Origin: Carpediemonas membranifera BICM
Taxonomy: Eukaryota; Protista; Fornicata
NCBI GenBank assembly: GCA_019828565.1
Contig: JAHDYR010000011.1
Span: 319,072 to 383,071 of the forward strand
DNA length: 64,000 nucleotides
Reading direction: 5' to 3'
Program-made: the position numbers and the translations under genes
Shown here: positions 18,954 to 40,950 of the stretch, piece after piece
Position numbering within the stretch: position 1 is the stretch's first letter
How the letters are laid out: the number at the start of each line of letters is the position of its first letter
The notes under the pieces: model-generated
What the model was told of the DNA's origin: nothing
The model's input: only the letters and a program-made list of their open reading frames with translations
The model's database searches: none

Positions 18954-20613
18954 TCAGAGACGGCCATCCTTCTCGTGGTCAACGGCCTTCAATGCCTCAA
19001 CACGCATCGCCAGTTCCTCATTCTGCGCCGCCAAGGCTCTATTCCTGGCCAGCAGGCTGTCAATCAGACTCTTCATCGTCGCGGGGTCCTCCCTAACTCG
19101 TTCCAGATGATCCACAGGCGGCGGTCTTATGATTTGCTCGAGCTGGGCGGTCTGTTCCTGTAGCATCGTGTGAACCGTCGCCACCGTGAGTCCGGCCCCG
19201 GCTAGAGGGAGGCCTGGCACCTTCATGGCGCTGATGATGCTTGACGGCGGTGGGGCATCGCGGGTGGGGTGCTCGCTCTCGTTGTCTGACGTCGCGTCGG
19301 TCGCACGCTTGGCCTCGCTGCGGCGGACTGTGAATCTCCCCTTACGGTGGCCAACGGGCTTGCCCTCGGCGGGAGTGTCGGGGCGTGAGACGGCCTCCTC
19401 GGTCTTGTCGGCGAGTTTCTCGGCTGACTTCTGGTCGCCCGGCTTCTCTGTCGACTTTTCAGTGGATTTTTCAACAGGCTGAGGCTTTTCAGTCGTCGTC
19501 TCGGCGGACTTCTCCGCGGGCCTTGCCTCGACTGGGGCCGGAGGCTTCGGCAGTTCCGCAGGAGCAGCCCTAGGCTCCGCAGGCACCACGTCTGCCCTGG
19601 CTGCGACCTTGCTCTCCTCGGTTCCGCTGAATTTCCAGCTCGTATGAAGCTGGGCGCCGCTCGCCACCTGCGGGGCGGTCCTGGGCGGCGCGGTCAGCTT
19701 GTACTCCACGTACTGGCCCAGCAGAGCGCCTAGCTGCTGCTTCCCGTTAGGAATGCGGGATTTCTTGGCGGCTGCCCACGCCTGGAGGATGCCGAAGAGT
19801 TCTTTCATTGACAGACGCTCCTGCGGCGATCGCTTGAGGCATCCGTGGATGAATGACTTCATCTTGGAGCTAGTCTCGGGCGGTGGGCCAGGCGGGTCGC
19901 GCTGGAGGGTCTTGATGAGGACCTTCATGGCTGGCAGGTCCGAGTGGGGAGCTGCGCCGTACATCATCTCGAGAGCGGTGATTCCGAGCGACCACACATC
20001 CGCCTTCTGGTCGTAGCCCTTGTTGTTCTGCTCCACAACCTCCGGGGCCATCCAGCATGGCGTGCCCACGAAAGTCTGGCGCTTGTTGATGCGCGAGCCA
20101 GCATCAAGCATTGAGGCCGAGACACCGAAGTCTGCGAGATACACACAGAGATTAGTGTCGACAAGTATGTTTCCTATGTGAGCGATGGGCCTGTGGGAAC
20201 GGACCTGCTTTGATGTCTCGGTGAATACGCCCAGTAGAGTGAAAGTATACCAGCGCCTCGACCACCTCGAGCAAGATATAGCCTACGGTCTCCTCCTTGA
20301 GGCCTTCTGGGGACACGGCGTGCATTATGTCATGGATTGAGCCCTCAAGAAGGGGCATGACGATCCAAAGGTACTTTTCCGTTGGGAAAACGGCGTAAAA
20401 CTTGACGAGATTGGGATGGCGGGTCATCGTCATCGTATGAATCTCCTGTCTGATCTCATCTATGAAGCTGGAATTGCCGTGCTCGAGATCAATGACCTTG
20501 ATGGCCACAAACTGGTCGTTCTCAAGGCACTTGGCCTTCCAAACACTTGCTGAGCCTCCAGAGCCAATAATTTCAATGAGTTCGTACTTATCTTCGTCTT
20601 GAGGCCAATTCAT
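18954..20613 (-). CDS. STE20-family Ser/Thr kinase (OSR1/SPAK/Fray-like), two exons
   Basis: WP..D.YEL..IGSG, VAIK, HRDIKAG|NIL across a 31-nt intron (20204-20174), DFG, TFVGTPCWMAPEV. The tail has KGRFTV and a coiled coil. Confidence 0.92.
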
Positions 20614-21305
20614 CGTTGCCTCAACGCCCTTCTTCTGTCTGCCCACTATCCATTTATGGTTGCTCATGTAAAGATCGCTAGATGTGACTAGGTCCCCAGC
20701 GTGAACGACGATCAGCCATAACTGGACCAGCAATCGCGAGTAGGGAAGTCTGTAGGCTTTGCGGTTATTGACGCTGCCTCGAGACGGTTCTGGGCGGATT
20801 CACGACAACCGCAGAATATATAAACAGAATTAAAATGCGTGCTAGAGTCACTCCTTGTGGATCGAGAAGTGTGCGAGAAAGCTCTCTCTGGTTTGTACGA
20901 GACGTTTCTCTCGGTTGTCCAAATCGATTCTCGTTTTTTCTCATCTTGAAACATACGGTAATGTATAGCCCCCTTGTCATGCTAGTCTATCCTGGAACTC
21001 AATCGGCCCAACAGCCAGAAGCAGATAGTGATGTTGGCGAACCGTTCCTTCAAGTTCTTCTCCACGTTGTTATCGTGACTGCAGCAATGAAGAAGAATAA
21101 TAAGAGACTATAAAGGCTTCCTAGTAGCTCTGTGAACGCGATACAACACGTGGGCTATCCTCATTTGCCTTCCTTCGCATCTTTGACGCGGGCGGCCGCA
21201 GCAGCAAAATATGGGCCAAAAGAAGCGCCCACCGAGGGGCTCGAACCCTCGACCACTGGATTAAGAGTCCAGCGCTCTACCGACTGAGCTAGACGGGCTT
21301 GCATA
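19689..21305. repeat. Left arm of a 1.6 kb inverted duplication (partner 54889-56505)
   Basis: Reverse complement of 54889-56505. The ORF-track translations are identical and paired coordinates sum to 76194 at both ends and at the intron. Confidence 0.95.
21226..21298 (-). tRNA. tRNA-Lys(CTT)
   Basis: 73-nt cloverleaf GCCCGTCTAGCTCAGTCGGTAGAGC..CTCTTAA..GGTTCGAGCC..GGGCG with a TTTT terminator at 21221-21218. Confidence 0.97.
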
Positions 21306-21491
21306 CCGTCGTAGACGCGATGCGTAAGTACGCCTCGGGGCGTGGTACAGGCCCAGATGGACTACCGGCCATCTGGTACAAATATTCGAGAGAGATCGAA
21401 TATTGACCAAATATTCGAATCAAATCTACGGTCCAGTTCAGACCAATTTTACCAAGGGGTTAAAACCCCATTCCCCGGTAGTTCCGAGAAG

Positions 21492-22010
21492 ATGGGCGAC
21501 GCACAGCCCCCCGTGACACTGGAGAGCCTGGAGGCCCTGGTGCGGTCACAGGCTGCTACAATAGCATCACTGAGCGAGAATCTTGACGATGTCCGCACGA
21601 ATGCTGAGGATGTACGCAAACCCACCAAAATCCCAGCAGTGCTCAAAGAATTCCAACACCTGCGCGCCCTACACGGAGAAATCAAGTCAATCCTGGCTGA
21701 CCCCAGCAAGGAGACGATTGCTGACATAACCACAGCCATTAATCTTGCCGTTGAAAAGCGCCTCGAGTTCCTCCGAGTCCTCGACTCTGCCAACGAAGAA
21801 GCGGCCGCCTACTTTATCGTCACCGCCGAGGACATATCCAACGTCAAGGACCTCGTCAAGGTCGCCGCCAAGGCCAAGAAGGCCATCCCTGCCACGCGGG
21901 CTCACACATCACACCGGTTCGCCAAGCGTCCCTTCCGAAACCACGGATACAACAACCACAGATTCCAGAAAGCCTCGGGCAACCGCAATGCGGCCCCGGG
22001 GCAGCAGTAG
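21492..22010 (+). CDS. DIRS-A gag-like ORF1
   Basis: Coiled-coil protein with a basic tail, in the ORF1 position. Similar to DIRS-B ORF1 (PPVT.ESL, RLEFLR). Confidence 0.75.
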   Translation: MGDAQPPVTLESLEALVRSQAATIASLSENLDDVRTNAEDVRKPTKIPAVLKEFQHLRALHGEIKSILADPSKETIADITTAINLAVEKRLEFLRVLDSANEEAAAYFIVTAEDISNVKDLVKVAAKAKKAIPATRAHTSHRFAKRPFRNHGYNNHRFQKASGNRNAAPGQQ

Positions 22011-22079
22011 TTGCCCAAGTGAGGTTATGCCATCCTCAGATATAAAAAGGCACCGTCTACGTTTTGAATACAGAGAAGA

Positions 22080-24086
22080 ATGTCACAAGAGCAAGCAAGA
22101 AGCGAAACAAGCCAGGACACATGGCACCTATTGTCCGACGCTCAGCCCGTCTCTGGTCCAGGTCAACGGACACACGTGGTTGGCTCAATGAGTCGAGCGT
22201 GGAAAGAGTGGGAGGCCATGGGGGCCAGCACGAGTGTCGTGGACTTACTCCGGCAGGGAGTCCCAGTACAGGACGGGCAGACGACGAACTCGTCGCCCAA
22301 CGGGTCACAGGGCCCGATCACAGACACAATCAACGAGCTAATGGAGCTGCAAGCAGTGGAGCAGTGTGCACCGACAGAGGTAGCGCAAGTCTGCCCAATC
22401 TTCATGACGCTGAAGAAGAACCACATAGACTGGCGCCTCATCCACGACCTGAGGCCGGTGAACTGGTACCAGACAACTAGGCGATTCCGACTGAAGGGAT
22501 TGACCGAGATAGCGAATGCACTGACCAAGGGGGCGTGGCTCGCCAGCGTGGACCTGAAGAGCGGATATTACCAAGTCCTGGTCGAACAGACGGGTCGGAA
22601 ATGGCTAGGCTTCCAGCACGAAGGGAACACGTACCGCTGGAACGCGCTTCCTTTCGGCCTCAACACGGCCCCGGAAGCATTTCAATCGATCACGGCGCAG
22701 GCGGCGAAGATCATCCGCCGAGAGCTCTCTCTCACAGTGTTCGTCTACCTAGACGACCTGTTGTTCGCCGACCCATCACAGCAAGAGCTAGCACGAAAGA
22801 TGCCCGAAGTCCTGAAGATAATGGAGCGGCTAGGAATGATAATCTCGAGAAACAAGTGCGTTCTTACACCGACACGACGAATCGAGTACCTGGGAATAGT
22901 TATCGATACGCGCAAGAACACAATGTCTCTTCCGAACGACAAGCGCGTGGAGCTGAGAAGAATGATCGATCAGGTGCTCAAAGAACGAAGAACAACGAAG
23001 ATAGAACTCCAGCGACTCATTGGCAAACTCCTTTTCGCCAGATTCGCAGTAGGAGCAAGAACGCTTCCTCGACTGAGAGAACTCCAGTTAATGGTGACTG
23101 CGCCGAGTCAGCGATTTACGAGAGCCTCCATGCCCCGAGACGCCCGCACAGACCTCAGATGGTGGGCGCGTGTGATCGCGACAGACCCGCAGTACGCAAT
23201 GCAGGGGTCACCGCGACCGGAGATCAGGGTCGAGACAGACGCCTCGGACGTAGCTTACGGCGCGACAATATGGACAGACAGCGAGAGGATGGAGATCCAG
23301 GGCCGGTTCAAGCAGTCATTCATACACAAGTCGATCAACTGCAAAGAGACGAGGGCCATAACCACGGCGCTGCGACACTGGGCACATGTGATCCGAGACA
23401 GAGATGTCCTGATCGCGGGAGACAACACCTCGTCACTCGCGTGGGTTGCGAAGAGTTCGACGAAGGCCCCAGCCCACATTCGCCGGGAGATCGCCGACCT
23501 ACACGACTTCCTGCATGCCAACGGTTGCCGCTTGAGAGTCAAACATATCGCAGGTGTATTCAACACAACGGCCGATGCTCTGTCGAGGTACAAGAAGCTC
23601 GATTGGGCCATGCCAGCGGCCCTGCTGGCAGCTGCGATAGAGAGGTGGGGAGCAGTGGACCGAGCGCTGTTCGCGGCCGAAAGGTTCTTACCCCAGGACT
23701 ACGACTACTGCAGAGACGCGTTCACAGCGAACTGGACAGAGTGCCGGTCAATGGCGGTCCCCCCGGTGGCCATGCTCGACCGAGTGGCCGAACGACTGGA
23801 GGCAATCGTAGACCAACGAGAAGAGAGACATCCCAGTCAACAACAGTCAGGAATCCTAGTTATCGCCCCAGTCAGGCAGACGAACATCGACTTGCGCCTT
23901 ATCCGAGTCGCACAGGAGACAGTCAACGCATCGCTACCAGCCCACTGGTGGGCAGACACGGAGTTGGCGGTACTGTTCGAGGGCAAGACACACATTCCCT
24001 TCAGGGCGTACTGGGTCCCGGTGACGACGTCAGCCTCGGAATCTTCCTATCAGCATCAGCAGTGCAAGCGCGACACCGAGCACTAA
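22080..24086 (+). CDS. DIRS-A reverse transcriptase / RNase H / methyltransferase-like domain
   Basis: DLKSGYYQ, LPFGL, YLDD. RNase H motifs TDAS, INCKE, DN, ADALSR. C-terminal DRALFA..DAF..W..AVPP resembles the DIRS MT-like domain. Confidence 0.92.
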   Translation: MSQEQARSETSQDTWHLLSDAQPVSGPGQRTHVVGSMSRAWKEWEAMGASTSVVDLLRQGVPVQDGQTTNSSPNGSQGPITDTINELMELQAVEQCAPTEVAQVCPIFMTLKKNHIDWRLIHDLRPVNWYQTTRRFRLKGLTEIANALTKGAWLASVDLKSGYYQVLVEQTGRKWLGFQHEGNTYRWNALPFGLNTAPEAFQSITAQAAKIIRRELSLTVFVYLDDLLFADPSQQELARKMPEVLKIMERLGMIISRNKCVLTPTRRIEYLGIVIDTRKNTMSLPNDKRVELRRMIDQVLKERRTTKIELQRLIGKLLFARFAVGARTLPRLRELQLMVTAPSQRFTRASMPRDARTDLRWWARVIATDPQYAMQGSPRPEIRVETDASDVAYGATIWTDSERMEIQGRFKQSFIHKSINCKETRAITTALRHWAHVIRDRDVLIAGDNTSSLAWVAKSSTKAPAHIRREIADLHDFLHANGCRLRVKHIAGVFNTTADALSRYKKLDWAMPAALLAAAIERWGAVDRALFAAERFLPQDYDYCRDAFTANWTECRSMAVPPVAMLDRVAERLEAIVDQREERHPSQQQSGILVIAPVRQTNIDLRLIRVAQETVNASLPAHWWADTELAVLFEGKTHIPFRAYWVPVTTSASESSYQHQQCKRDTEH

Positions 24087-25227
24087 GAGCCGCAGGCGTG
24101 ACACCCGACAGAACCAGAACGCAGATAATATGGTCCCGGGCTAGCCGTCCTAAGAACGAGGACGTCGAGAGAAAGGTCGCGTCCAGCCCGCTCCTGCTCC
24201 GCCTCGAGAAGGTGACGCGTGATCGAATTGCAACAGAGACCGCAAAGTTCACATTCTTCCGCAACATGACCAGAGAACCAGATGACTCGGACTTCGAGGC
24301 CTACCTCGGACAAAATGACGACCCGGCACCAACCCCACGGGAAGCTGCATGGGAGATCGTACGACAAGCCCACGAGAAAATCCATGACCAGAAGTGGGTG
24401 CAAGAGTTCGAGGAGGTGGCAATCGCGGGGGACGATGACGACACACTGCTATGGTACATGATAGGGGAGGTGCCCTTCCTCGCCAAAGACTCACTGCTAA
24501 CGAAGGAGGCAAACATCAGAGATGGAATGACCGCATTGGGCGAACCCATAGAATGCCCACCACTCCACCGGGCCCTGATCAAGGCCTGTGGCAGATTGGC
24601 TGGAAGGTGCCCAACGTCAAGCCAGCGTCGAACAGGGGAAAGCATGGCCAATAGCCAGGGAGACCCTGTCACAGGCCGCGGTGCAAGCAGGCAAGAGCGC
24701 CACACCAGCATTGACTCAAGCAATAGCTTTCGGGCTGGTCGGGTTCGCGACAATATCTCGGTCGGGGGGAGATACGGGGGCTCTCAACATCAGACGTCGA
24801 ACGACACGGCAGGGACATCACCATCACCATACGACGCTCCAAGACATCGGATGAACCCATGCTAAAGCTGGTCCCTAACGTCCCCGGAGACGACAACCCG
24901 GCAGACTGGCTTGCGAGACATATGGAAAACCTCCCAGATGAAGGACCCCTGTGGCGCTCATTCGAGGCCAGGGACGCGCTGATCAAGGACAACAGGTCCT
25001 CCCTGATGAACAGAGACCACCCTTGGAGAAGATGGGAGATGTCCATGGACCTAGAGGAGGTGCTGCGCGCGTCGGGCCACTCATTCCGGAGAGGAGGCGC
25101 AGTCCACATGATGAAGCTAGGTGTAGCCCCAGCAGTGATCCAAGCAATCGGGGGCTGGAAACAGCTCGACTCGATGCAGACCTACGTCAGTGAAGCCGTG
25201 CGCCTCTCCACGAGCGCTTGGGTGTAG
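22535..25227 (+). CDS. DIRS-A tyrosine recombinase ORF (overlaps RT, frameshifted near 24.64 and 24.8 kb)
   Basis: SRSG (catalytic R), HSFRRGGA (HxxR), GGW and terminal Y (MQTYV), spread over three frames. Confidence 0.85.
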
Positions 25228-25820
25228 AAGGACGAGAAAGACGGATAATACATAGAATATGATTGCATAAGGCCCCATTAGACTGTACAATAGGCCATGT
25301 AAGAGTTAAAGACATGATAGAGAGCAGAAGATAAGGCGGGAGAAAGCCAGTTCACCAATGATTTCAGCAAAGTGGAAACACTTCGATCATGGATGGACAA
25401 GGACCAACAGGCCTGGCCTATATGGATAGGGCAGTGCCCCATGGAGCTCAGAAGGAGCGGCCTTGGCCTCCTGTCTGAACATTCAAGGGTTGCTATCAGG
25501 GCATACCGCTGGGCGCGAGTGGGAGCTCCACGCCCATACCAAGGAATCAAAGTGTCTTCATGGAACGTATGTTTACAAGGAAAAGGAAAACAACCGTCGA
25601 GGGCCAGTGCTAGCACCGGCGGCTACATGGTTTTGTCAAGACCACAAGGAAGGAAGGGCAGCACAAAAGGGAAACAGGGGCCGTCGATAGAGGCTAAAAG
25701 GAGACTACGAACAAAGCAACAACAACTACACAGAAAGGCCCCGCTACTCAGAAAAGGGCGACGCATTTTTAGGACCGCGCCTTTTTGAAAGAATGGCCTA
25801 TATAGTACGGAGCATGGACA

Positions 25821-28800
25821 ATGGGAGAAACTGGAAGGCCTGGACGGAGACCTCACCCGGATATGTACATGTGGCCCGACTTTCGGACCCAAAAATTCCG
25901 ACCCAGTTTATGGACTAGGAAAAGGGGAGAAATTTTGCACTCAACAATGCAGGTAGAAATACCGACAAGGATCAGGGATTCCACGCAGAAGCAGTGGGAG
26001 GACATCAGGGAACTACTGGACAGCTTCCTCGCTGAAAGGAACGATTCAAGGACTCTACTTCTTCGTAGAACAGGCAAGTTTACAGGAAAGTCGCTCAATG
26101 CGAACTCCAAAGGACGCAAGGAAGTAATCATGAACGCCAGACGCATCCTCTTCGCAACCGGCGTCACTGACAACAAGGACATCATCCTCAGGAACCCATG
26201 CGGCATCCACGGCCTCCGCGACCTTTTCTACATGCTCACAGAGGCGCTCAACCCCAGAGACGAGGAAGCAAAGGACATGGCACAGGCACTGGAGCCCAAG
26301 ACGCTGAAAGCGGGCTTCACTGGCATGGCAAGATGGCCATCTGAGAAGGACATCGAGACGGCGATCCTCAAGCCGAAGGAAGATGGGCCCATCGAATGGG
26401 ATGTAGACAGGGACAGCGTCAAGAAGGCCGAAGGGTCGTTCATACTGGTATCAGGGGCTCATGGAGACGAGGCCGTAGAAGGCGTGCCTTACGACAAGGT
26501 ATGGGATCCGGCAAACCAAGGCCCGGTCACCAGAGTGGCCTACGAGCAAGAGGACGGCAAGTACAGGGTCATCCTAGAGCTAAGCGACACGTCAGCATGG
26601 TCCATCAGCCGCTTCATGGAGGAGGCTAGGGACATCCTCAGGCTTCAGGCACCGGAGGCCCCGGCCATATGGCAGGCAGCATGGAACAAGTCAGGGATCT
26701 ACCTGAAGGGCAGAACCAATATCCTGGGCGAAGGGGAGGAGACCCCCCTTAGCAACGAGCCGCCGTTCCGGAAGGTGAGGCTGGAAGTGCTCAAGGCCAC
26801 CTCGGTCCGCAGCAATAGGGACGAACATGCCGATCTGGACAGGTCGTCCGCTAGCACGGTCATCGACGGAGACGAGGAGCAACATGTCAAGGACAAGGAG
26901 GAACGACGCCAGCAGGCCACCATGCCCGGCAGAAGAAGCCTCGACGACAGCCTCCTGGAAGTGAACAAGGACATGGTCGGGGCCAACCAAGGCAAGATCG
27001 ACCAGGACGAGGAGGTCGACTCAAACAAGGTCAGCAGCCAGCCGCCGAGGATGCCTAGAAAGGACAAGGAGAAACGACTGGTGATCGGAGCCATCGACTT
27101 CGAGTGCGCAGACCCTGGCGTCAAGAAGGCAGGGATCCCTGCCATCCCGGTTGAGGGCGGGATCGTACTCTTTGACCTCAGCACTGGGGACATTCTTGGA
27201 CACGGGCATGGCCTGTATTACCAGGACATACCGGCAGCAAGCATGGACCAAGCGAGGTACACGGCATGGGCAGTGACGGGGCTGCCGCCGGCCACCTTCG
27301 TGGAGGTCGGGACGGGGCGGCCGCCGATCGAGTATGAGAAGCACATACATACTTTCAGGGACTGGGCCAACCGCCTGGCGGCTCAGCTGGCAAGGATCGA
27401 AAGGTCGGAGGGTTGGAAGATAATCATGTATGCAAAGGGGGTGGAGATGGAAAGCTTCCTCCTCACGAACCCCACAAATGGACTGGAGCAAGGAACCAGG
27501 GAATTCTTCCAAGCTAGGCTGGTGGACGAGAAGAAGCTACCAGAGATCCTGGAGAACAACGGCAAGGAGGAGGCTGGCCAAAACCTCAGGGACAACCTCG
27601 ACAAGGCCAACTACCTGGAAGCAGTAACAACATGGTCAAATGGATGGCAGAACAGGAGCGAGCCCAAGGGAGTCTGTCCGTACCACAGACACACCGCGGG
27701 TTGCTACCACTGTGGGTTGGCGGATACAGTAGTCTTCACAGCCAGGATCAGGGCCCTATGCAAGGAGAGGATGAGCACCCCAGACGTCTACCACTACATG
27801 GGTAAGGCACTCGACAAGACCATGGAAGCAGTCGGGAAGGCGGAGCCGGGCATGGATATCATGGGAGGCCCGGAATTCGCGACAAGGAGGGACACCTTTG
27901 AGATCTTCGGCACGTACCCGATCGGGGACGCAAGGGACGTCAGCAGGGAAGTCGGCGACAGGATCCTCGTAGTCCCGGACAACGGACACCGCTTCGGCAT
28001 CGGCTTCGGGTTCGGGGAGGTTCTGTTGGGCATGAAGGGCATCTTACTGCCCCCCTCACAATCATGGACAACGAAGGTGTACTGGAGAGAAGCCCGCTAT
28101 GGACCATCATGGAAAGAGCCACGGCTAACCAGCTCCGCATGGTACGCGTCAGGAAGGGCCTAGGGGCAGCAAGGGAGGAGGACATCATAACCATGGCCAT
28201 GCTATACGAGTGGTGGCCCTCGAAGGAGGCTACGGCTCATCAAGGAGTCTGGGGCTGCGACGACCTAGCAGAGAGCCTCAGGGACTATGAGAAGGTCATA
28301 GTCAACGTCAAGGCCCCCCAGGAACAGGGGTAGGATCACCCTAGGGGCGAGCTTCATCCCGAGAGACTGGGGGCATGGTCAGGGTCAGCGAGGCTGGGAC
28401 CATCCTAAGCCGCATGCGCAAGGAAGGGGCCAGACTAGTCTCGGCAGCTATCCCGGACGAGCCCAGAGCCAACACAGTCAATGTCCCAGGCATCACGTAT
28501 GTCCCCACCATCGACGGAAAGTCCGAACAGCCATACCAAAGTAGGTTCTTCGACAACGGCCTGGAGGAAAAGGCGAGGCGGATTAGCACCAGGATGGTGG
28601 GCAGGCACTTCGGCCAGGACGCGGATCAAGGACATCACGACCAGCATGGAGACAGGGAAGAGGACAGAAGGGTAGGACACGGAGCCGGCGGTAGAGCTGG
28701 TGTCAGAGCTGACGACAGAACCGGCGACAGAGCTGGTAACATGAACAGGACCTCGGATCGTAACCACGGAGGAGACGACAGGGAGAGACAGGACAACACG

Positions 28801-28929
28801 GGAACGCAGATGAGAGGCTCGTTCAGCGGGAACACCTGGGCCGGTAGAGGCTCAGAGGGAGGCATGGACAACAGCAAGGATCACTCTTCCTCCACGACGC
28901 TCAAGCGCAAGGGAGGGCAGCACGAGTAG
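25821..28929 (+). CDS. LINE ORF1 with a Maelstrom-like DEDDh/ECHC nuclease domain (about 27075-27750), probably one ORF split by frameshifts at about 28050 and 28330
   Basis: AIDFE, IPVEGG, YAKG..ME, CPYH and HCGLAD motifs in the 780-aa ORF. Continuation frames begin at C and G runs. Confidence 0.65.
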
Positions 28930-28933
28930 GATC

Positions 28934-29326
28934 ATGGACTCGGACAGCGGAAAGAGAAGCAGGCACGAAGAGGACATGGACTGGGAGTCTGGAAGCAGAC
29001 AGGCAACCGGCATGGACTCGGAGAAGCTGCGGCTCCGAAAGCAGTTGGCAGAGGCGCAACAAGAGATCTCAGCGCTCAAGTCTGCCCGACTCATGCAAGA
29101 GCAAGGCCACGGAAGGTTGGTGCTCTCCGGCGTCGCGACTAAGCCCAGCAAGGAGAAGCCCACGATCCCCCGGCACAAGCACAAGAAGGCTAAGAAGGCC
29201 AAGCAGATCTCACCCATGGACCTGATGACCCAGTTCATCACGGTAATGCAGAGTCTACAAGGACAGCAAGTGAGTCAGGCCGAGGACAGCTGCAGCGGCA
29301 GTGGGGAGTCCACGGAGGAGGAGTAA
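28934..29326 (+). CDS. Small coiled-coil, Lys-rich ORF inside the LINE
   Basis: 130 aa with heptad LRKQLAEAQQEISALK, basic KHKKAKKAK and an acidic end. Confidence 0.5.
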   Translation: MDSDSGKRSRHEEDMDWESGSRQATGMDSEKLRLRKQLAEAQQEISALKSARLMQEQGHGRLVLSGVATKPSKEKPTIPRHKHKKAKKAKQISPMDLMTQFITVMQSLQGQQVSQAEDSCSGSGESTEEE

Positions 29327-29658
29327 GGACATGGTAAAAGCAGTATTCTTTCAAGGAACAAGCAACATTTTCTTTATAATTCACAAGCCCTGGCTCCCAC
29401 CCAGGGCCCGGCATTAGCTGAAATGCACTGCCGGTAGGCTGTAGCGGCAGCCAAAGGGGGGTCACGTCATATCGTCCCCCTCCTAAGTACCCTGCCCGAA
29501 GAATGGAAGGTCACCAGGTGGTAACAAGGTTGGCCTGACAAGGGTCACCGAGACCGGCATCTAGGCCCCTTGTTAGGACAAGGATAGCAGGAGAGGAGCG
29601 GGAAGCTGGGGCTCCCAAATTCTGGGAATTCGCAGGATAAGGAAACAGGACAAAGGCA

Positions 29659-32600
29659 ATGGTAACCTACAAGATACTTAGTCTGAACACAGAGGGACAC
29701 ATAGGAAGAGGAAAGGACTTCACGGCGTCTATGGCAACGGCGATTCAGCTAAGGTTGAAGGACATAGAGGCAGTACTCATACAAGAGACATGGAGAACGG
29801 CGAATACGAGGGTTCATTGCTTCATGGACCTTGACTACGCACTAGCAGGGAGGGAGACGGAAGAGGACCTGGTCTTAGCCAACGAAAAACGAAAGGTGGA
29901 TGTCAAAAGTCAGCACCGCATCAACCGACAACTAGGCATAGCAGGCAATGACGAACCTGCGCCAAGATGGAAGGGAACAAGGGAAGGCATCGGCACGATA
30001 GTGAGCCCACACGCAACTGCAAAGTGGGACATCGGCATAACGGACAGCCTATCGGGAAGAGTGCAAGCCAGCATAATGAGAACCGGCAGGGACATACTAG
30101 TCATCAACGTGTATGGCCCTCCATCCGGCCACAGCAAGCAGGAGAAGGATGGATTCAGGGACACTATACAGAAGATCATGGACATGAAAGGGAGCATGGA
30201 GGCCATAATTATGGGAGACTGGAACATCGACCCAGGCCAGATGGAAAGATCCACCCGGTGGAAGGATATGATGGAGAAGCACAGGCTCAAAGCCATCATA
30301 CCCAAGTCTGGGACGCTCACATCAGGAACATCAACCCCGGACTTTGCAGTGACAACACCAGGAATCCAGGGGGCGGAGATTGAGGTGGTAGAGTCTCAGA
30401 AGGTCGGGGTATGGGGCTCAGCACACAATGGAATCACACTAGCATGGAAGGAACAACGGTACTATGGCAGAAGTGAGCGAGACGTGGCTCTGGCCATACC
30501 CGAGGTGCACACCTGGCCCATGAAAAAGAAGGAGGGGCCAGTCACAGTCTCAAAGCTGAACAGGATCAAGAGCTCGGACCAATGGGAAGAGACTATAAGA
30601 GCATGCATGGGCGACCCAGTGAACAACAGGGGAGCAAAGGCAAGGGACAAAGTGTTCGGGAACGGAGTGTGGAGCGAACTCCAGCGAACCCCATGGACAG
30701 AAATAGGCAACAGGACCAGGAAGGAAAGGATGAAAGAGGAGCTGGAGAAATACTGGGGAGAGCGCAGGGCCAAATGGGTGGCCGACATCAGCAGAAGTGC
30801 AAAAAGGGGGTATAGGGCCTCAAGGGCCTCAGTGGAAGCTGCCATCAGAAGGTGGTGGTGTGACAACCAATACAAGGGAATGCCGGAGAGCCTCCTCAAG
30901 GACGGAGTGATAACCACGGACAAGGCGGCCATCAGCGAGATCCTCTTGCAACAGTATGCTAGAGTCAGCAGAGGCAGGGAACCCACCTGGAAGACATGGA
31001 GGGGCAGGGACGGAAATGAGTTCAAGGAAAGCGAGGTCAAAGCCGCAATCAAAAGGATCAGGAGGGACACCGCACCAGGGCCTGACCTCACATCTGGAGA
31101 CATGCTGAGAGAGCTGGATGAGAAAGGCCTTAGGGAAGTGACGAGGCTCATCAACAGGGTCTACAGGGAGGGCGACGTACCCAAAGCATGGAAGTATGCC
31201 ACAGTGTCGGCCATACACAAGACAGGGAAGCCAAGGGTCAAGCCGGAATCATATAGACCAATATCCTTGACACCACTGCTGTACAGGGTCTATGGTAGAT
31301 TGCTCAAGATACGTCTGGAAGCAGCAACGAAAAGGTTCATACCAAGAGAACAGGCTGGTTTCCAGTCAGACAGGGACGTCATCCAGCAGATACAGTACAT
31401 TGTGCAGCGGCACCAGGAGGGGGTGAGACCACGTCAATCTTTCTGGACATCGAGAAGGCATATGACACGGTACCAAGGGACATTCTCATGGATAAGCTAC
31501 AGGGTATGGGGGTGGAGGAGCACTTGATCAGGGCAATTCAAGGCACAATAAAAGGAAACCTGGATATCAGTCAAGGGGGCAAAGGCATGGGAAAAGAACC
31601 AACAGGGGAGTTAAGCAAGGGTGCGTCCTGGCACCGACACTGTTTGTGCTGTTCATGGCTAACTGGCCCCACCTGGCCAGAAAGAAAATCAAGGGAGAAC
31701 GGTACGACATCAGAGAACCGCCAAGGACCACGAGCCACCTCAGCGACCGACTACCGGCAGCACTTACCATGTTTGTGGATGACACTGCGGTCACAGGGAG
31801 CAAACCGGAGCATAGCCAGATGGTCGCCAACATAATGGTGGACATAATCAGAGAGCATGAAATGAGGGTGAACGCCCAGAAGAATGTAATGATTAGCGTG
31901 GACAGAACAGCCCTAGTCAGGATCGAGGGGGTAACACTACTGCCAGAGAAGGAGGCGAGATACCTGGGATTATGGATCGCAAGTGGGAAGGACCCTATGT
32001 CGGCCTGCATAAGGCGGAAACAGGAGCAGAGCGAAAGGTACAAGAGACTGGTGAGATGGGCAGGGTGGACCAGGGCAAACATGCCAGCACTAGCGAGCAG
32101 GCTACTACTGGAAATATATATATGGCCCAGGATCCTCTTCGGAGTCGAGGTGTGGGGGAACGCACCGGGAGGTAGAAGGATCTGGAATGACTGGCAGGGA
32201 ATCATGGCAGGAACAGGACCGGGAGGGGGCGCAGCCATGAGGCTGATGAATGGATGGGTGGACCTCCAGGCACACATGGAATGGCTGGCAGTCAAAAGGA
32301 TAGTCAACTACAGGGACCAGGATATACCAGTCAGAAACAGAGAATGGGGGCGGGGCACGGTTATGTGGGAAGCTAGGGAGAGAGTGCAGCATCTACTGGA
32401 GGGCACCAGAGAGGGAGCCCCTAAACCAGCGCTACTGGATTATGGCATGGAAACGATCAGGAGGGGGTGGATGAAGCGGTGCAAAAGCCGTACGGCACTA
32501 GGACTAATGGAAATCATGGGGACAAGGAAATTAAGCAAGTGTCTGCAAGGTAAGCCTACGGTAGACCGAAAGGCTGGGAAGGGGCAAAGCAGGGCGGAAT

Positions 32601-33104
32601 GGAAGAGAATTGTATCCATTGCAGCCAATGTCAGCCCATCCCCATCGTCGGCAGAGAGAGGGGAGGGCCCTATGAGAGCCATCACAGAGCTGGCCCAAGG
32701 CGCTGACCTGAAGAGAGAAATTAGCAGACTATGCCCCCTATGCTCGGAGGAGTCGGAGGTGAGCCTGTTCTACAGGATCATTAGGGAAAAAGCCAGGACC
32801 AGCAAGGAAGCAGGAAATGATCAGGGAGTGGGCAGAGGGCCAGAGGCTAGGATCGGCAGCGCACATAATCTGTGAATGCCCGGCAGTAGACAGGGGAGAA
32901 GCTTGGACAAAGCTGTGGACAGCAGCGAAGCACAAAACTAAGGACTTGGAAGTAAGGCAGGGCCCCCAGGGCGAATGGTACCAGGAAAGACCCATCCTAG
33001 AATTACAGCAACTAATAATATGGGGCTCGGAGGACATTTGGGAAGGCCTCACGGCAGGACTACGGGAACTGGCAAAGGTTTACAACAGCTTCAAGGTGGA
33101 ATAG
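29659..33104 (+). CDS. LINE ORF2: AP endonuclease, reverse transcriptase and CCHC knuckle (frameshifted)
   Basis: LSLN, IQETW, NVYGP, MGDWN. APGPD, YRPISL, QAGF, FLDIEKAYD, QGCVLAPTLF, FVDD. CPLC..HIICECP. Frames change near 31.42, 31.56-31.6 and 32.8 kb. Confidence 0.9.
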
Positions 33105-34632
33105 AAGCATGTCATGAACCCCTGACTCCAGGACCGGGAAGGGATGGACAAGGAATCAGCCATGGACCACCCTCGCTGGTGCTAAGCTCCTGGGATCAGT
33201 GAGGAAAGGCCCCACGTATCCCGGTAGCCAGGAACCAAAGCAAGGGAAGGAACGACTGCAAGGAAAGAACAGGGAAGGACAGATCAGAAATAAGAAAGAA
33301 AGGACATGCAACAAGGACAGAGCAAGGATAAGGTCAAGGAAATCCATATTCATATGGTTGCACCACTCGTTGGGACCCCAAGGAAACTGCAGGGACTGGC
33401 CACGGGGGTCGGAGGGGCACAGGTGCCCCTGCCGCCCTTGTTAACGACATGGGAAACCAAGGACATGTAGTGCAAGCGAAATGTTGTAAGGGGTAACAGG
33501 ACAACCAGGCCTAGTGCCTGGGGGTACACCACCCATGCCCTGACCCACGCCACCTAACCGGGGTAGACAGCATGGACTTAGTCACTTTCCCCGCCTTCGG
33601 GTAGGCTTCTTAACAGAGTCGAGGGGGCATGGAATTGGGGAACCGGACAGACGAGAGGGTGCCGTGGCTGAACGGCTCTACAAGGACTGCAGGGAAGCAA
33701 GGAGTGTCATAGTCAAGGTTCTGCAGGACGATCCTGCCTGTCAATGCCCCGAGGACAGACCCCCAGGCTCCCCGGATAGTTGCCGGACTTTCAGGGAGAC
33801 AGGAAAGCATATTTGCACGGAGATGGCCGCAGGGCCTCTGGGGCGATTGGAATCGGCTTTCCGCGGAGACAGTAGCACCGAAAGCCCAAGGCAAACGCTG
33901 CTGACCAGTTTGCCACGGGAAATAGGCAGTACCCCGGGGCACTCAGCTCCAAGACAACGGGAAACAAGCTCAGTCCGGGGTCAGAATCCAAGCACCATAA
34001 ATTTCTTTCTTTCTTTCCTTAAGGCGGGAGAAAGGAGAAACCGCAGCAGATTGTCACTAATGGTTAATAAGATCGATATATCGAAGACTATCGAAGAATT
34101 GGCCGGAGAGAGTGAGAAAATGCCGGCGATGGAAATGGCCAAAACCGCGCACAAAGAATGACTATCAGGCTGTGAAAATATGTGCCTGAGAGATGGGCAT
34201 CAATGGCATGCTGGGAGGCACAGGAGACCAGAGAAATAATTTCTGAAGAGAAAATTTTTATTATATGATGGCGGGATACATCAATTGGAGACTTCGACCG
34301 TAGTCGACTGCAAGTCGGCATACCGTCGTAGACGCGATGCGTAAGTACGCCTCGGGGCGTGGTACAGGCCCAGATGGACTACCGGCCATCTGGTACAAAT
34401 ATTCGAGAGAGATCGAATATTGACCAAATATTCGAATCAAATCTACGGTCCAGTTCAGACCAATTTTACCAAGGGGTTAAAACCCCATTCCCCGGTAGTT
34501 CCGAGAAGATGGGCGACGCACAGCCCCCCGTGACACTGGAGAGCCTGGAGGCCCGAGCATGTTTCCCATCAATCTCGGGTATAAATTTGATTAGATCAAT
34601 TGGAGACTTCGACCGTAGTCGACTGCAAGTCG

Positions 34633-34938: not shown

Positions 34939-35250
34939 GGTGTTCACTCCGGAGGGTGACTCAGACAGGGTGTTAGGACACCGATATATTGCCTGTTCTG
35001 CTCCTGGGATCGAGATCCTGGCGGGTTCTGCACTCCCCAAAGGCAATGACCGACGACGCGTATAAACACCTTGTTGGATTATTTACTGCTGTGCAGTTGT
35101 ACTCGTGCAGAGCACGTAATTTTGAAAATTGGTCTTGTCAGTGCCTCAGTTATTATTATTGCTATTTATAACTACGGGCACACTCACCCCTGCTTCGCAG
35201 GTTATGTGTAAATACTGTTGTCGCCACAGAATCGATTCTAGTACAGACTC

Positions 35251-36838
35251 ATGTTTGCCAAAACCCAAATGACAATTCCAGAGCTCGACGCTATTAACCT
35301 CGACCGCGAGAGCGTCCGCTCCTTCAAGAGGCAAGTCCAACGCCTCAAGGTGTTCGCACCTGACGCGAAAGCCTCCCTTTTCCTCACCGACGCCTTGTCG
35401 GATCTCATTCAGCGACAGTTCGACCTCAACGCTGAAACCATCACCGAAGAGGAGCTCTTCAAGCACCTCGACAAGCTCGTCGGCCCTCAGACATCCCGCC
35501 AATGGCTCGCCGAGCTGAGCAAGGTCCGCTGTGAATCCACTATCACCGACCTCAACACCCGCACCGTCCTTGTGCGCAAGTACATCAACGCATTCCAGGA
35601 CATCTTCCAGCTCTACACAAAGGGCGCATTCTCCGAAGAGGAGAACCTCTCCCGCGACGACGATACCGTCATCGAAAAAGCCACCAAGCTGTGCCTCTCC
35701 CATCTGGCACCTGACGCTTTCCAACGTGTCGTCCGCACGGAGTATGACCTCCGAAAGCCAACCAAGCTCGAGGACGTGTACAAACTCATCACCGAGGCCG
35801 CCCGGGTTGAAGACCAGCTTCGCCTGGACATGACGCGCTATGGCTACGATCTAGTGCGCACCAAGAAGGCCAGAACCAAGGCCAACAGCGACCCCGACAC
35901 TGACGAATCCTCCAGCACCAAGCAGGCCCTCCCCATCAAGGCCAAGGAAGCGGCTCCCACCTCCAAGCCGCGTCCGAACGACATCCATCCGACCAACAGG
36001 CCCCCGAAGACCCCTTGCCCCATCTGCCAGGGCAATCACTGGCGGAACGAGTGTCCCCGTTCAGAGAAGACACGCTCCAGGGAGTCGGGCGGCGGCCTCA
36101 GAGCCAAATCTGAGCTCAAGGCCAAGACCCCGTTCGAGGCCATGATCCTTGACGATGCCGAGATCGACACCGAGGACGACGTGCTCAAGACTACGGGCCA
36201 TATAAATGGCCAAGAGTACGTGTTCCACATTGATTCATGCGCCAGACGTTCAGGAGTTTCGGAGGGACTAGCAAAGGATCTCGCCCTACCCCATTCAACG
36301 GGCCCTACGCGGCATTATTTACTGGCAGACCAGTCAGTGGCCACCGCTAATGGCCGGACCTCCGCGGACCTCCGAGTGGCCCTAGCTGGCCACGAGACCC
36401 GCTTCACTGCCAACCTCGACATCATACCAGGGAAAAAACCCCTGATCCTCATAGGCTGCGATATTCTGAGAAGCCTCGGATGCCTCACTTCCGATGGCCT
36501 TTTTGTTAAGCTCGTGAAAGAAACCGCAGCAGACGAAGGGGACGATATTCCTTTCAGACCAGCAGAAGAATTACTGCTGGCCGACAACGTACAGCCCAAC
36601 ATTGAGATCGAGGAGCTTAAGCAACCGATCACAGCGATATTGGAGCAGCACCCTCACGTTTTTGACGGCCTGGCGCCGGGAGGAGCCAAGGTGCCCGCCA
36701 TGCGCATCCCGCTAGTGGACGAACAGCACCTCGTGCAAGCCAAGCCCCGCCGCCTCAATCCCAGACGCCGTGAGCAAGTCAGAGAAGAGCTGCAGCGCCT
36801 GCGATCGGCAGGTATCACACGGGCCTCACAGGGACCGT
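35251..36838 (+). CDS. Gypsy 1 gag-protease and RT N-terminus
   Basis: CPICQGNHWRNEC knuckle and IDSCA protease site. Removing Gypsy 2 and one TSD restores QGPFASPIVVV. Confidence 0.88.
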
Positions 36839-36970
36839 TGTGGTGGTCATAGACCACACTAATCATTTATACAGTTTAAGCCATTTATTGGCACAAGGGT
36901 TTTCTCTTCTTCTTTCCCTATAAAAGCATTCTCCGCATTAGCGAGGCACATTAACGTTAATTCCCCTCAA

Positions 36971-39900
36971 ATGCTGAAGAAATCCGATCCCCCGTTGCTG
37001 AAGTCGCCAGATCTGAACGAACTGTTCATCTTTGTGGACAAGTTCAACGATTACCGCGCCTTAGGGGGCAAGCGAGACATTGAGAAGCTAATCGACAGCG
37101 AGGTTCGGGAGATGGTGACAGCAATCCTACCAGCGGACGATCTTGACGACGCGGAGGAAGAGATCCCTCTCCTCCTTAATCAACATCATCGTGCCGCTCG
37201 CTCCAGAGCCCAGAAGGACCTCAAGATCATCAAGCGCCTAGGACGCGCTCTCAGACCTACTCAAGAAGTCAACAAGCTCCGTCTCTTTAGAATCACCGCC
37301 AAGGACTTCTCCCCTATCGAAGTTGCTCGAGTCAACAAGAAGTTCCGTATTACCATGGCAGTCGTCCAACCCGAGTTCCCCCTCGAGACACTACGCGACA
37401 TATACGTTCGTTGTTTCAAGTTCGGATCCAACCAGACGATGTACCGCATCAAGGGAGGTGATCCAGGACATGTCGCTAGAAGATGCCATGCCGCGCGTTC
37501 TAGCCCTATCCAGAACAGTCCAAGAGAGCACCGCGATCGCCAACGCGTTCCAGGACAAGCCGTCCAACGCCGAGCACCACCACACGAGCCGTAACTCCCA
37601 CCGACGCAACGATCGCAAGCCTCAGTCACGTCCCACCGAAGACCGTTCGCATGCTACCAGACCTGAACACGCGTCGACTAAGCCTATCGACAAGAAGGGC
37701 AGACGTGATCATTCACAGTTCACTTGCTATAACTGTGGTGGTAAGGGTCACGCCGTCTACGAGTGTAAGAAGCCCAAGAACAAGTGTCAGAAGTGCGGGA
37801 AGAGCGGACACCTTGACAGGTTCTGTAAATCCCCACAGTACTTGTCCTTGTTCTCGATGACTTCACACAAACGCAAAGATAGCCTACCTCTGTGCAAAGT
37901 TAAGGTCGAGGGTCGAGACGTCGTTGCCTTGATTGATTCGGGGAGCCAACTGCTCCACTATATCCCCCAAGCTGACCAAGGGTATGACGCGTATATCAGA
38001 TGAAGAGCGAAGCGTGCGTACAGCCAAGGGAACTATACAGTCCCAAGGTTCCGTGCAAGGGAACATCAAACTCATGCCGTCAGCCTTTACACCTAAGGCA
38101 GTGTCCTTCAAGCCGGAGTTGATTGTGCTAGATACTGAGTTCGACGTCGTCCTGGGGTACCCCCACCTTGTCGAGCTGGGAATCCTCCCCGACGTGAACG
38201 TAGAGTCAGGGGAATACTCGGACGAAGTCCAGGTCCCCGAAGCTTTCAAGCACAACGCTGCCATTTTTAGTCTATCCGACCAGTCGACCAAGAGTCAAGC
38301 CGAACTGATCAAGAGGTTCTCCGATCTATTCCAAGACCGGGACGAACCTAGCAGGCTAGAGCCGTACGACCTCGTTCTGAAGGACGATCGGGTCGTGAAC
38401 GCCAGACCTTACTATGTACCCCCAGCGAAGATACACGTCGTGAGAGAGCACATCGACACGCTGCTAGCCAAGAAATATATCGAGGCCTGCCAGTCACAAT
38501 ACGCTTCCCCAGCTATGACTGTGCCTAAGAAGGGAGGCAAGTCGCGTTTCGTAGTCGATTTCCGCCGTATTAACGAGCTTACTGAGCCGTTCGACTACCC
38601 CATCCCTCGTATCGACGAGGTGCTGTCACAGCTCGCAGGACAGAAGATCTTCGCGACTCTAGACCTGTCGTCCGGGTACCACCAGATCCCTTTGACAGAA
38701 CGATCAAGACCCCTGACTGCATTTACCACCGTACTAGGGCAGTATCAATACCGACGGATGCCTTTCGGGCTGCGCAACGCAGGAGCTCACTTCCAGAAGG
38801 CCATGGAGCGCGCCTTCGCCGGGCTCGTGGGCAGCTCATGTTACATTTACATCGACGATATTATTGTCTTCGGCAGCGACGAGGCCGAATATCTCGCGAA
38901 CCTCGAAAGAGTCCTGGACCGTGCGCGTAAGGTCAAGCTCCAGCTCAATCGCGAGAAATGCCAATTCGGCAGGCAGGAGGTCGAGTTCTTAGGTTGGGTT
39001 GTCAATGATGGGCAGGTGAGAATCGCACCCAGCCGTGTAGACGACATCGCAAATCTCCAGATGCCGACATCCATCAAGGGCATGCAGGGCCTAGTAGGAT
39101 TCCTCAACTATTTCCGGGATCACATCCCCCATTTTGCGGAAATCGGACACCCGTTAATCAAAGCTATGTCCGGTCACACAAGTCTCGGCCTGACCGCCCA
39201 GCAGGAGGCCCTCGATAAGCTCAAGCAGAGCCTTACCTCCGCTGACGCCCTAGCAATTTTCGACGCCACGAAGGAGCATTCTATAATGACCGACGCCTCG
39301 GGAGTGGGGTACGGCGCAGTCCTATTGCAAGAGGGCAAGCCTGTCTGTTACATGTCGAAGGCCTTCAACGCCACACAGTCTCGTTGGTCAACGATTGAGA
39401 AGGAGGCGTACGCCATTGTGGCGGCCTTGCAGCGCTGGCGCAAGTTCCTTGCCTGGGGACCTTTCTCCATACTCACTGACCACCGAAACCTTACCTTCAT
39501 GTACCGTAGCATCAACCCGAAAGTCAGGAGGTGGGCCGATGCCATTTCCGACTTGGACTTTGAGATTAAGCACGTCGCCGGCCTGGACAATGGAGCCGCA
39601 GATGGTCTGTCCCGTGTGTTTACTATGTTCACTCGCAAAGCTACGACCGATGAGATTGAAGAAGCACACACCACCGCCGGCGCCCATCTATCTCGACGAC
39701 TAACGACCGAGAAGCTTAGAGCCGAAGGGTTGTCGGTGTCGAGAGCCGCAGTCGACCAGGTGATTGCAGCTTGCCCGGTGTGCCAAGTCCTCGAGAAACC
39801 CCACGTCGATACACCGGATGGTCTGCATACCGCCGTTGATGAACCGTTTAAGCGAGTAGCCATCGACACCTTAGGTCCGTTCCCCAAGTCGCAGGGGTTC

Positions 39901-40908
39901 ACGCACATCTCCGTCATCATAGATATGTGTAGTAGGTGGACCGAGTTGGTTCCAGTTACAGGTACGACTGCGCAAGCCGCAGTTACGGCGTTCGTTAATA
40001 ACTGGGTCTTACGCTATGGCTGCCCCGAGGTCTTACAGACTGACGGCGGGCCCGAGTTTAACAATCAGCTCATGAAGTCCCTGGCCGACGAGATGGGTTT
40101 CCACACCCATGTTACGACTCCACATCACCCGCAATCTAATGGCATCGTCGAACGGGCCAACAGTGGAGTTCTCAAAATCTTGAAGGCCAGAAAGTTCCAT
40201 TTCCGGGACGCGGACTGGGTCAAGCACTTACCTGTCGCACAATTTATCGTCAATTCGACGCCCAGGATACCCACTCACCTCTCACCATCCGAGATCATAC
40301 TAGGTGTCAACATCAGGATCCCGAACGAGATCATCATCTGCACCCACTCGACTAGCGCCAGAATACAGGACAGACGCGCGGCGGCTGGCCAAGCCATCCA
40401 GCTAGCGAAGGCTAGAATTCAGGCAATGAGAGAGGACGCTCTCGCAAACGCCGCATCGTCACGTCAGGAGTTACTGTGCCGGTTCGTGTTGGTCAAGTAC
40501 CCAGCCAGACCTCCCAACAAGCTGATGCCAGGATGGCGAGGGCCCATGCGACGGGTCAGTGCGGTTAAGCAAGATGGCGTGACGGTCGCCTATGAAGTTC
40601 AGGACCTCAACCAGGGAAGCCAAGGCAAGATATTGAAGGTCGACGCCTCGCGCGTACGCAGATTTAACCCTGGCAATCTATCCGAGCGAGAGATCAAGGA
40701 CTTGGCCGCCACGGCGAACGATGAGTGGGAAGTGGACCGTATTTCCAAATCGCGAGGGAACGGAACACGAACCAAACGCGAATACCGCGTTCACTGGTCT
40801 GGTTTCGAGGACGAGGAGGCGACATGGCAGGATTGGGACTCCGTCAAGGACCTGGAAGCATTAGATATATATTTGAAGTCTGACCAAGCCAAACTGGACG
40901 GTCTATAA
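36971..40908 (+). CDS. Gypsy 2 gag-pol (two CCHC, PR, RT, RNase H, IN, chromodomain), frameshifted near 37.45 and 37.94 kb
   Basis: CYNCGGKGHAVYEC, CQKCGKSGHLDRFC, LIDSG, YIDD, TDAS, TDGGPEF, NGIVER, WRGP, EWEVDRI..YRVHWSGF..ATW. Confidence 0.93.
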
Positions 40909-40950
40909 ATCTTCACCACATCTAATCGCTCCAGCGTCAAGTCATCAGAT

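Follow-up and report, generated by a model that had tools for sequence, protein, structure and literature searches.

What does a nuclease-like domain do in the first open reading frame (ORF1) of a long interspersed nuclear element (LINE)? The question is raised by a 64,000-nucleotide stretch of the genome of Carpediemonas membranifera BICM (GenBank assembly GCA_019828565.1, contig JAHDYR010000011.1, positions 319,072 to 383,071 of the forward strand). This stretch is referred to below as the window, and its coordinates and plus strand are used unless otherwise stated. A sequence-only reading of the window had proposed that the ORF1 of a LINE carries a DEDDh-type nuclease with an E-C-H-C zinc site, resembling Maelstrom (MAEL) and the arenavirus nucleoprotein (NP). 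The motifs on which it relied, IDFE, PVE, CPYH and HCGLAD, lie where it placed them, in an open frame of 780 codons (25821-28163) upstream of ORF2. We find that the LINE-borne nuclease-like domain with MAEL-type motifs is real and conserved and, so far as the literature was searched, undescribed: in the open full-text literature, a scope that leaves subscription papers and repeat databases outside, no LINE ORF1 was found to have been described with a MAEL-type or DEDDh domain.

A predicted DEDDh domain with a MAEL-type zinc site

The domain comprises 240 amino acids (27066-27785) and was recognized from a structural model, Foldseek, VIA-align and conservation. The Exo I motif D-x-E (IDFE, 27096-27104) contains D426 (nucleotide 27096), kept in 11 of the 12 rows that cover it, and E428 (nucleotide 27102), kept in all 12. 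E445 of PVE (27153-27155), located on strand 2 of the model, is the first predicted zinc ligand (the E of ECHC) and is present in 12 of 12 covering rows. The putative third catalytic acid (Exo II), E544 (27450-27452), was placed by eye against kinetoplastid MAEL and is Glu, where Asp would be expected, in all 13 covering rows. The C-terminal motif C-x2-H-x7-H-C-x3-D (27675-27725) takes in CPYH and HCGLAD and would supply the zinc ligands C619, H622 and C631 (codons starting at 27675, 27684 and 27711) and the catalytic residues H630 and D635 (27708 and 27723). In the 16-row alignment A4, H630 is kept in 12 of 13 covering rows and the other four residues in 13 of 13. These nine key residues are thus retained in 11 to 13 of 12 to 13 covering rows at 26 to 59% overall identity; the rows of A4 that depart from them are P0010 and P0014. 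The C-terminal residues of the L004 and L008 rows are circular evidence, because both rows were found by the motif itself; alignment A3, which predates the motif scan, shows similar conservation (10 to 11 of 11). The motif set arose in none of 20,000 residue shuffles of the 780-amino-acid ORF, and the DNA pattern in none of 100 shuffles of the window, results that exclude compositional noise only, because the patterns were written from the observed sequence.

A model built from the 15-row alignment A3 had a predicted local distance difference test (pLDDT) score of 80 and a predicted template modeling (pTM) score of 0.78. A single-sequence fold (pLDDT 38, best Z 5.0) was discarded as evidence. 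Foldseek returned 39 PDB matches at E ≤ 0.001; among the matches listed, all were DEDD-type, with Bombyx MAEL at rank 10. When the model was compared with 48,161 chains using VIA-align, the best 28 rows were DnaQ/DEDD-type domains throughout, including the exonuclease domain of DinG (Z 11.6), 3'hExo (11.2), ERI2 (10.9), ESRP1 (10.9) and RNase T (10.8). Z scores reached 11.6 to 11.9, with root mean square deviations (rmsd) of 3.5 to 4.3 over 150 to 190 aligned residues, as for a DnaQ-type, RNase H-like fold. Both of the relatives named by the sequence-only reading were compared directly. MAEL gave Z scores of 10.0 to 10.9 (9nhc, 10.9, 184 residues aligned, rmsd 4.3; Drosophila 4ybg, 10.7, 190 residues, rmsd 4.3; Bombyx 5af0, 10.0, 180 residues, rmsd 3.8), and arenavirus NP gave 8.5 for Lassa virus (143 residues, rmsd 3.6) and 8.2 for lymphocytic choriomeningitis virus (LCMV), at 16 to 17% identity. 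Because scores no more than 1 apart were treated as tied, the fold scores support DEDDh and not MAEL specifically. From the alignment end points, D426 corresponds to D122 of Bombyx MAEL, D389 of Lassa NP and D12 of epsilon, and D635 to R306, D533 and D167, respectively, a residue register that presumes a gap-free alignment beside the ends. D-x-E lies on strand 1 and the domain closes with H-x4-D, as in DEDDh enzymes. Judged from the model, the domain almost certainly has the DEDDh fold, as had been predicted. That all catalytic positions are retained speaks for an active two-metal 3'-to-5' exonuclease, and on these residues we consider nuclease activity very probable.

Conservation of the domain in a LINE clade

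Word-index searches yielded two proteins from 2580 candidates and two from 589, all of them hypothetical proteins of C. membranifera. P0004, which matches the window at 99.4% identity across 355 residues, was the only protein returned by a word-index search with A3. Cluster look-ups added the relatives P0006 to P0009 and P0022, and when a three-row profile was run with HMMER against 1.84 billion representatives, 14 proteins matched at E ≤ 0.001, among them 6 from C. membranifera and 6 further NCBI proteins. P0013 (KAG9395705.1) bears the source name "Splicing factor U2AF" and is actually a fragment of the ORF1 of this LINE (51% to residues 566 to 746 of P0001).

A DNA scan with the C-terminal motif detected ten loci in metagenome_contigs and one in genome_contigs, with none in viral_contigs and no true match in 185,579 prokaryote genomes or IMG/VR. 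Eight of the 11 loci, all on PPCM01 contigs, match the domain profile (each with a best E of 1e-54 or lower); in L010 the domain is split by a frameshift. L003, L007 and L011 were dropped as chance matches, since the motif lay in a 39-codon frame or was cut by a stop. Locus scans seeded with proteins gave no confirmed locus in metagenomes (252 stretches), viral contigs or phage records. Other copies of the family therefore do carry the domain: in seven of the eight loci, ORF1 is followed on the same strand, after 50 to 438 nucleotides, by an ORF resembling apurinic/apyrimidinic endonuclease (APE), with or without reverse transcriptase (RT); the remaining locus, L008, runs off its contig. ORF1 and ORF2 are both open, with RT, in L002 (1261 and 1194 codons) and in L004/L009 (at least 1074, and 1173 codons). 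APE and RT are detected by Pfam in the window and L002; in L004, RT is detected by Pfam and APE by tblastn. No target site duplication (TSD) was found for L002. L004 and L009 are 100% identical over 7499 nucleotides, lie at different sites and diverge exactly past the tail, which, together with their open ORFs, points to apparently recent mobility. L004/L009 apart, the loci share at most 71% nucleotide identity, so the eight loci represent seven families, and the domain-bearing LINE ranges over at least two assemblies.

Across seven elements (the window and six families), the pairwise identities of the domain correlate with those of APE (21 pairs, Spearman rho 0.90), a value reached by 8 of 5040 label permutations. 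Small trees of the domain and of APE agree on L001/L006/L010 and on L004/L005 and disagree on the two longest branches, those of the window and L002. The proportion of nonsynonymous differences (pN) was below that of synonymous differences (pS) in 28 of 28 domain pairs, with synonymous sites near saturation and uncorrectable in 7; for the domain of L006 and L010, the corresponding rates were dN 0.33 and dS 1.15. From the co-divergence and from pN < pS, the domain has long belonged to this LINE clade and has been maintained in it.

Organization of the LINE and its ORF1

The element is an 8673-bp APE-type LINE (25347-34019), delimited by its TSD, a contig match and Pfam. The TSD claimed for it was recovered as two exact 15-bp repeats, TAAGGCGGGAGAAAG at 25332-25346 (the longest exact repeat common to both element ends) and its exact copy TAAGGCGGGAGAAAG at 34020-34034. 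The match of a run X1 contig to the window begins at 25348, at the left end of the LINE. Long terminal repeats (LTRs) are absent, and the 3' tail (33997-34019) consists of ATAAAT and short TTTC repeats without poly(A), which together with the 15-bp TSD is as in APE-type non-LTR elements; in L004/L009 the tail is ATAAAT followed by TCAT repeats. ORF2 (29659-33104) encodes an APE endonuclease, RT and a C-terminal Cys/His region; in the window copy it is divided among three frame segments, the third of which is 32763-33104. Its Pfam matches (Exo_endo_phos_2, E 1.2e-6; RVT_1, E 1.3e-5 and 7.1e-13) agree with the APE-RT assigned to this position downstream of ORF1. The closest PDB sequence is LINE-1 ORF2p (E 4e-11), and the intact ORF2 of L004 is 31% identical. 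In the window, L002 and L004 alike, Pfam did not detect an RNase H in ORF2. The run X1 contig differs in ORF2 by three single-base homopolymer indels (31418, 31550 and 31592) that fit an open frame in that contig.

The extent first given to ORF1, a single frame from 25821 to 28929, did not hold, as the frame stops at 28163. Because sister-family proteins (P0009, P0013 and P0022; P0013 to 29113) match the window from 25947 through successive frames to 29323, we place ORF1 at approximately 25947-29326 (about 1120 codons, by tblastn and blastx with P0002, P0009, P0013 and P0022). In this copy it is open from 25821 to 28163 and then interrupted by about four frameshifts, all downstream of the nuclease domain; in intact relatives, ORF1 has 1074 to 1261 codons. 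Three of the breaks (about 28050, 28315 and 28370) coincide with runs of C or G, and the fourth is somewhere in 28800-28870. Since run X1 shows homopolymer indels in ORF2, assembly error is a plausible source of the breaks, the X1 indels being from ORF2 and the X1 contigs not bridging the breaks at about 28050, 28315 and 28370; alternatively, the breaks may reflect decay of the window copy. P0002 and P0007 stop just past NVKAP, where the window shifts frame at a C run (28314-28319), and P0009, P0013 and P0022 read through this position. The common stop may be a shared homopolymer error or a programmed frameshift.

Outside the nuclease domain, ORF1 contains a conserved N-terminal region (25947-26810; about 50% identity among the named sister families) with a weak profile match to four of eight distant ORF1s (E ≤ 0.003). 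This region had no match to Pfam, PHROG or PDB sequences, and hence none by Pfam or PDB sequence to an NP core domain. A second conserved region (27786-28614, alignment A5), which ends in a FIPR-x-WG motif and is broken in the window copy, matches four of eight distant ORF1s by profile (E ≤ 0.0012), and a PDB-sequence search with it gave chance matches only. The C-terminal segment (28856-29326; 38% to residues 700 to 863 of P0009) likely contains a coiled coil; the C-terminal part of the L002 ORF1 has a weak match to ATG16 (E 0.0013) that fell under the cut-off. Scanning the domain and ORF1 against Pfam and PHROG gave nothing meaningful. The statement that ORF1 has neither an RNA recognition motif (RRM) nor a CCHC zinc knuckle was upheld: Pfam detected neither of these, nor an HMG box, and C-x2-C-x4-H-x4-C is absent from 10 of 10 ORF1 proteins and from three window segments. 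This defines a LINE ORF1 architecture without an RRM or zinc knuckle.

Transposons around the LINEs

From about 21 kb onward, the window is a nest of retroelements. The LINE inserted about 105 bp past the recombinase ORF of a DIRS-type element (21301-34554), which it interrupts and which encodes gag-like, RT/RNase H and tyrosine recombinase products between 237-bp direct repeats at 21301 and 34318. LINEs of this clade often are nested in or beside other transposons: in addition to the window copy (25332-34034, in DIRS), retroviral-type protease ORFs occur at the 3' junctions of L004 (1199-2068) and L009 (200-1084), a chromodomain integrase ORF follows the LINE in L002 (9806-10657), and a DDE transposase fragment lies upstream of it in L005 (3-383). 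In the flanks of L006 and L010, Pfam matched nothing (the L001 and L008 flanks fell outside the scan). The nesting may reflect targeting or mere survival bias.

A 1638-bp inverted duplication (19674-21311 and 54883-56520) brackets the 21- to 55-kb transposon cluster and takes in part of an ORF labeled kinase-like by reading. Several nested gypsy-like elements occupy 35131-50523, with very short direct repeats of 99, 112 and 82 bp (35131/45700, 36839/42770 and 46167/50442, respectively). The remainder (50524-64000) holds a minus-strand DIRS-type element, the second in the window, whose direct repeats are 230 bp long, together with a third DIRS-type element in tandem copies that are nearly identical (2756 bp at 99.96%). 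Two host-like genes on the minus strand, at 2465-5962 and 11568-14276, are presumably, by their motifs, those of a DEAH-box RNA helicase and a Dna2-like nuclease-helicase.

Relationship of the domain to MAEL

C619, H622, C631 and D635 are spaced at offsets of 0, +3, +12 and +16, exactly as C290, H293, C302 and R306 are in Bombyx MAEL. There, E137, C290, H293 and C302 are the zinc ligands and R306 occupies the position of the last Asp (Chen et al., PMC4408791). Entamoeba MAEL rows contain D-F-E, P-[LI]-E-x-G and C-x-Y-H-x7-H-C-[GA]-L-x-D, and kinetoplastid rows contain K-G-x-L-M-D (Zhang et al. 2008, supplement S1, PMC2628886). Compared by eye, the LINE domain has D-F-E, P-x-E-x-G and C-x2-H-x7-H-C-x3-D in common with protist MAEL, and its K-G-x-x-M-E lines up with the kinetoplastid K-G-x-L-M-D. 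The window copy has five of the six residues of the EHHCHC set of Zhang et al., and the first His is present in 11 of 12 rows. The E-H-H part also is found in prokaryotic epsilon exonucleases (PMC2628886), and therefore only the C-H-C part is diagnostic of MAEL. Among the best 28 VIA-align rows, the MAEL chains give the longest alignments (180 to 190 residues versus 140 to 180), partly because they are longer targets.

Several results weigh against a kinship with MAEL. In the window copy, Thr replaces the second His of the set, which 6 of 13 rows have, counting L010, where this position is out of frame. By Z score, MAEL is not separated from 3'hExo, ERI2, RNase T and DinG, and the best score of all belongs to a DNA exonuclease domain, that of DinG. 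The zinc loop is the weakest part of the model (pLDDT 53 to 65 at residues 191 to 220 and below 50 at 210 to 213). The Pfam profiles of Maelstrom, arenavirus NP and RNase_T matched 0 of 15 and 0 of 16 domain rows, misses that reflect divergence, because no other DEDDh profile was matched in these scans either; searches of PDB sequences with one sequence and three profiles gave chance matches only. In the ESM Atlas, prokaryotic clusters without names rank first for the window domain (0.94), with an Rv2179c-like match at 0.92 and no Maelstrom cluster among the matches listed. Three such clusters, of 240 to 252 amino acids and from Bacteroidota and Methanobacteriota, are possible prokaryotic relatives. 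For P0011, RNase_T/Rv2179c-like clusters came first.

The ESM Atlas ranking, like the absence of a Pfam Maelstrom match and the E-H-H residues of prokaryotic epsilon, would suit convergence, with a prokaryotic or viral DEDDh enzyme gaining a C-H-C zinc loop independently. Such an origin, which concerns ancestry only and fits any function, nevertheless appears unlikely to us: the domain has the exact zinc-site spacing of protist MAEL and, by eye, also its D-F-E, P-x-E-x-G and K-G-x-x-M-[DE], the MAEL alignments are the longest, and the motif scan had no true match in prokaryote genomes or IMG/VR. We class it as a DEDDh domain whose site is of the MAEL type; on balance, descent from MAEL is probable, short of proven membership. 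The likeness to Maelstrom and arenavirus NP that had been claimed thus stands for the DEDDh fold and for E-C-H-C at MAEL spacing, but not in the sense of fold scores that set MAEL apart or of a Pfam or PDB-sequence match. As regards NP, the DEDDh fold and ECHC are shared (Z 8.2 to 8.5), but MAEL structures score higher and the spacing is that of protist MAEL. Arenavirus NP was not among the Foldseek PDB matches listed or the named rows of the best 50 from BFVD, an absence that excludes nothing. Its rank of 30 in the ESM Atlas (0.91, 139 shared features) is a lead only.

Proposed function of the domain

The best overall explanation, to which we give a little less than an even chance, is that ORF1 of this LINE carries a zinc-stabilized RNase that destroys paired or antisense RNA and thereby blunts host silencing. 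The domain would be a metal-dependent 3'-to-5' enzyme in which E445, C619, H622 and C631 bind zinc, D426, E428, E544 and D635 act with H630 in two-metal catalysis, and the substrate is RNA rather than DNA. The ORF1p of other LINEs is an abundant ribonucleoprotein (RNP) coat, and the same may apply here. As ORF1 is without an RRM or knuckle, the RNP scaffold would be made by the N-terminal and second conserved regions and the likely C-terminal coiled coil. Where the LINE is nested, read-through from other transposons could give antisense RNA, and clearing paired or antisense RNA from around the LINE transcript would then counteract host RNA silencing. We favor this role over 3'-end trimming or template clearance, DNA trimming and pure RNA binding, because the combination of scaffold and nuclease parallels that of Lassa and other arenavirus NPs and because the LINEs nest among transposons. 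Lassa NP degrades dsRNA (PMC3429428). That counter-silencing is the main job of the domain remains a tentative suggestion, at somewhat below even likelihood.

The insertions terminate in short repeats and have no poly(A), and ORF2, where scanned with Pfam (window, L002 and L004), shows no RNase H. Both points would suit a housekeeping RNase that trims the 3' end of its own RNA to the short-repeat priming tail or, standing in for RNase H, clears the template after first-strand synthesis. A core step of this kind would fit the tight co-inheritance with ORF2, and one Entamoeba MAEL protein, in which both motif sets are present, degrades ssRNA with Mg or Mn (PMC4408791), an activity that fits trimming as well as dsRNA removal. 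This analysis yielded no direct evidence for a housekeeping role, however, and we regard it as somewhat less likely than counter-silencing. To our knowledge, many LINE clades have repeat tails, no RNase H and no nuclease of this type.

The best VIA-align match, the DinG exonuclease domain, is bound to ssDNA, and TREX1 and RNase T score Z 9.6 to 11, as might be expected if the domain, like TREX1, RNase T and ExoX, trimmed 3' flaps or the ends of cDNA where the element inserts. The prospect of such a DNA-acting enzyme is nonetheless remote, given that the ECHC motif, which links MAEL and arenavirus NP (PMC7968707), is reported in these RNA-acting proteins and that the domain is in ORF1, outside the integration polyprotein. 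An RNA-binding module with little or no cutting, replacing the RRM or zinc knuckle as in metazoan Maelstrom, is equally improbable: neither an RRM nor a knuckle was found in ORF1, the third acid is Glu, and Bombyx MAEL binds ssRNA without cutting it, but the catalytic positions, including the general-base His, are all kept across families at 26 to 36% identity, whereas metazoan MAEL has lost them (PMC4408791). A one-off capture of the domain is ruled out by the eight further loci and the co-divergence with APE, as is its belonging to the surrounding DIRS element by its position inside the LINE TSD and its travel with APE-RT elsewhere.

Counter-silencing thus remains our preferred function. An extension of it, in which LINEs keep an ancient, catalytically intact MAEL nuclease that arose as a weapon of transposons against silencing, with hosts later recruiting it as Maelstrom and arenaviruses taking it as the NP enzyme, is a long shot. 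The LINE domain does add a third branch to the question of the origin of Maelstrom and the arenavirus exonuclease, and the intact, apparently recently mobile L002 and L004/L009 make the enzymology directly accessible.

Comparison with known systems

MAEL-type nucleases in print belong to hosts, where they serve transposon silencing, and to arenaviruses, where they serve immune evasion; a catalytically complete MAEL-type domain in a LINE clade puts the same type of enzyme on the transposon side of the conflict. The catalytic MAEL of protists (Entamoeba histolytica EHI_192630 and kinetoplastid MAEL; PMC4408791, PMC2628886) has the DEDDh fold, acids and His, and E-C-H-C that also are present in the LINE domain, and the C-x2-H-x7-H-C-x3-D spacing of the Entamoeba rows is identical. 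Unlike protist MAEL, the LINE domain resides within an ORF1 of about 1100 to 1260 amino acids, its third acid is Glu, its second His is often Thr, and it is invisible to Pfam. Metazoan Maelstrom (5af0, 4ybg and 9nhc) has the same fold, and the C/H/C spacing is that of Bombyx C290/H293/C302, but it has lost the DEDD residues and works in the host PIWI-interacting RNA (piRNA) pathway.

The arenavirus NP exonuclease (3r3l and 4o6h; PMC3429428) has the DEDDh fold, ECHC and the H-x4-D end in common with the LINE domain, although its Z scores are lower (8.2 to 8.5) and the alignment is shorter (143 to 148 residues). In NP, the nuclease is fused to an RNA-coating protein, a coating role that we infer for the LINE ORF1p. 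The loop from C-x2-H to the last Cys is longer in arenavirus NP.

Among retroelements, bdelloid LTR and Athena/Terminon (Penelope-like) elements carry DEDDy cargo with DEED, with Cys-His-Cys in Vesta2 and Vesta5 (Rodriguez et al., PMC5408684). Like the LINE domain, this cargo is a 3'-5' exonuclease carried by a retroelement, but it is RNase D-like DEDDy and encoded by a separate ORF3, whereas the LINE domain is DEDDh/MAEL-type and lies within a non-LTR ORF1. The ORF1s of CR1, L2 and RTEX LINEs, which carry an esterase (cited in PMC5408684), resemble that of the window LINE in having a built-in enzyme domain and differ from it in that the enzyme is a lipid esterase and not a nuclease.

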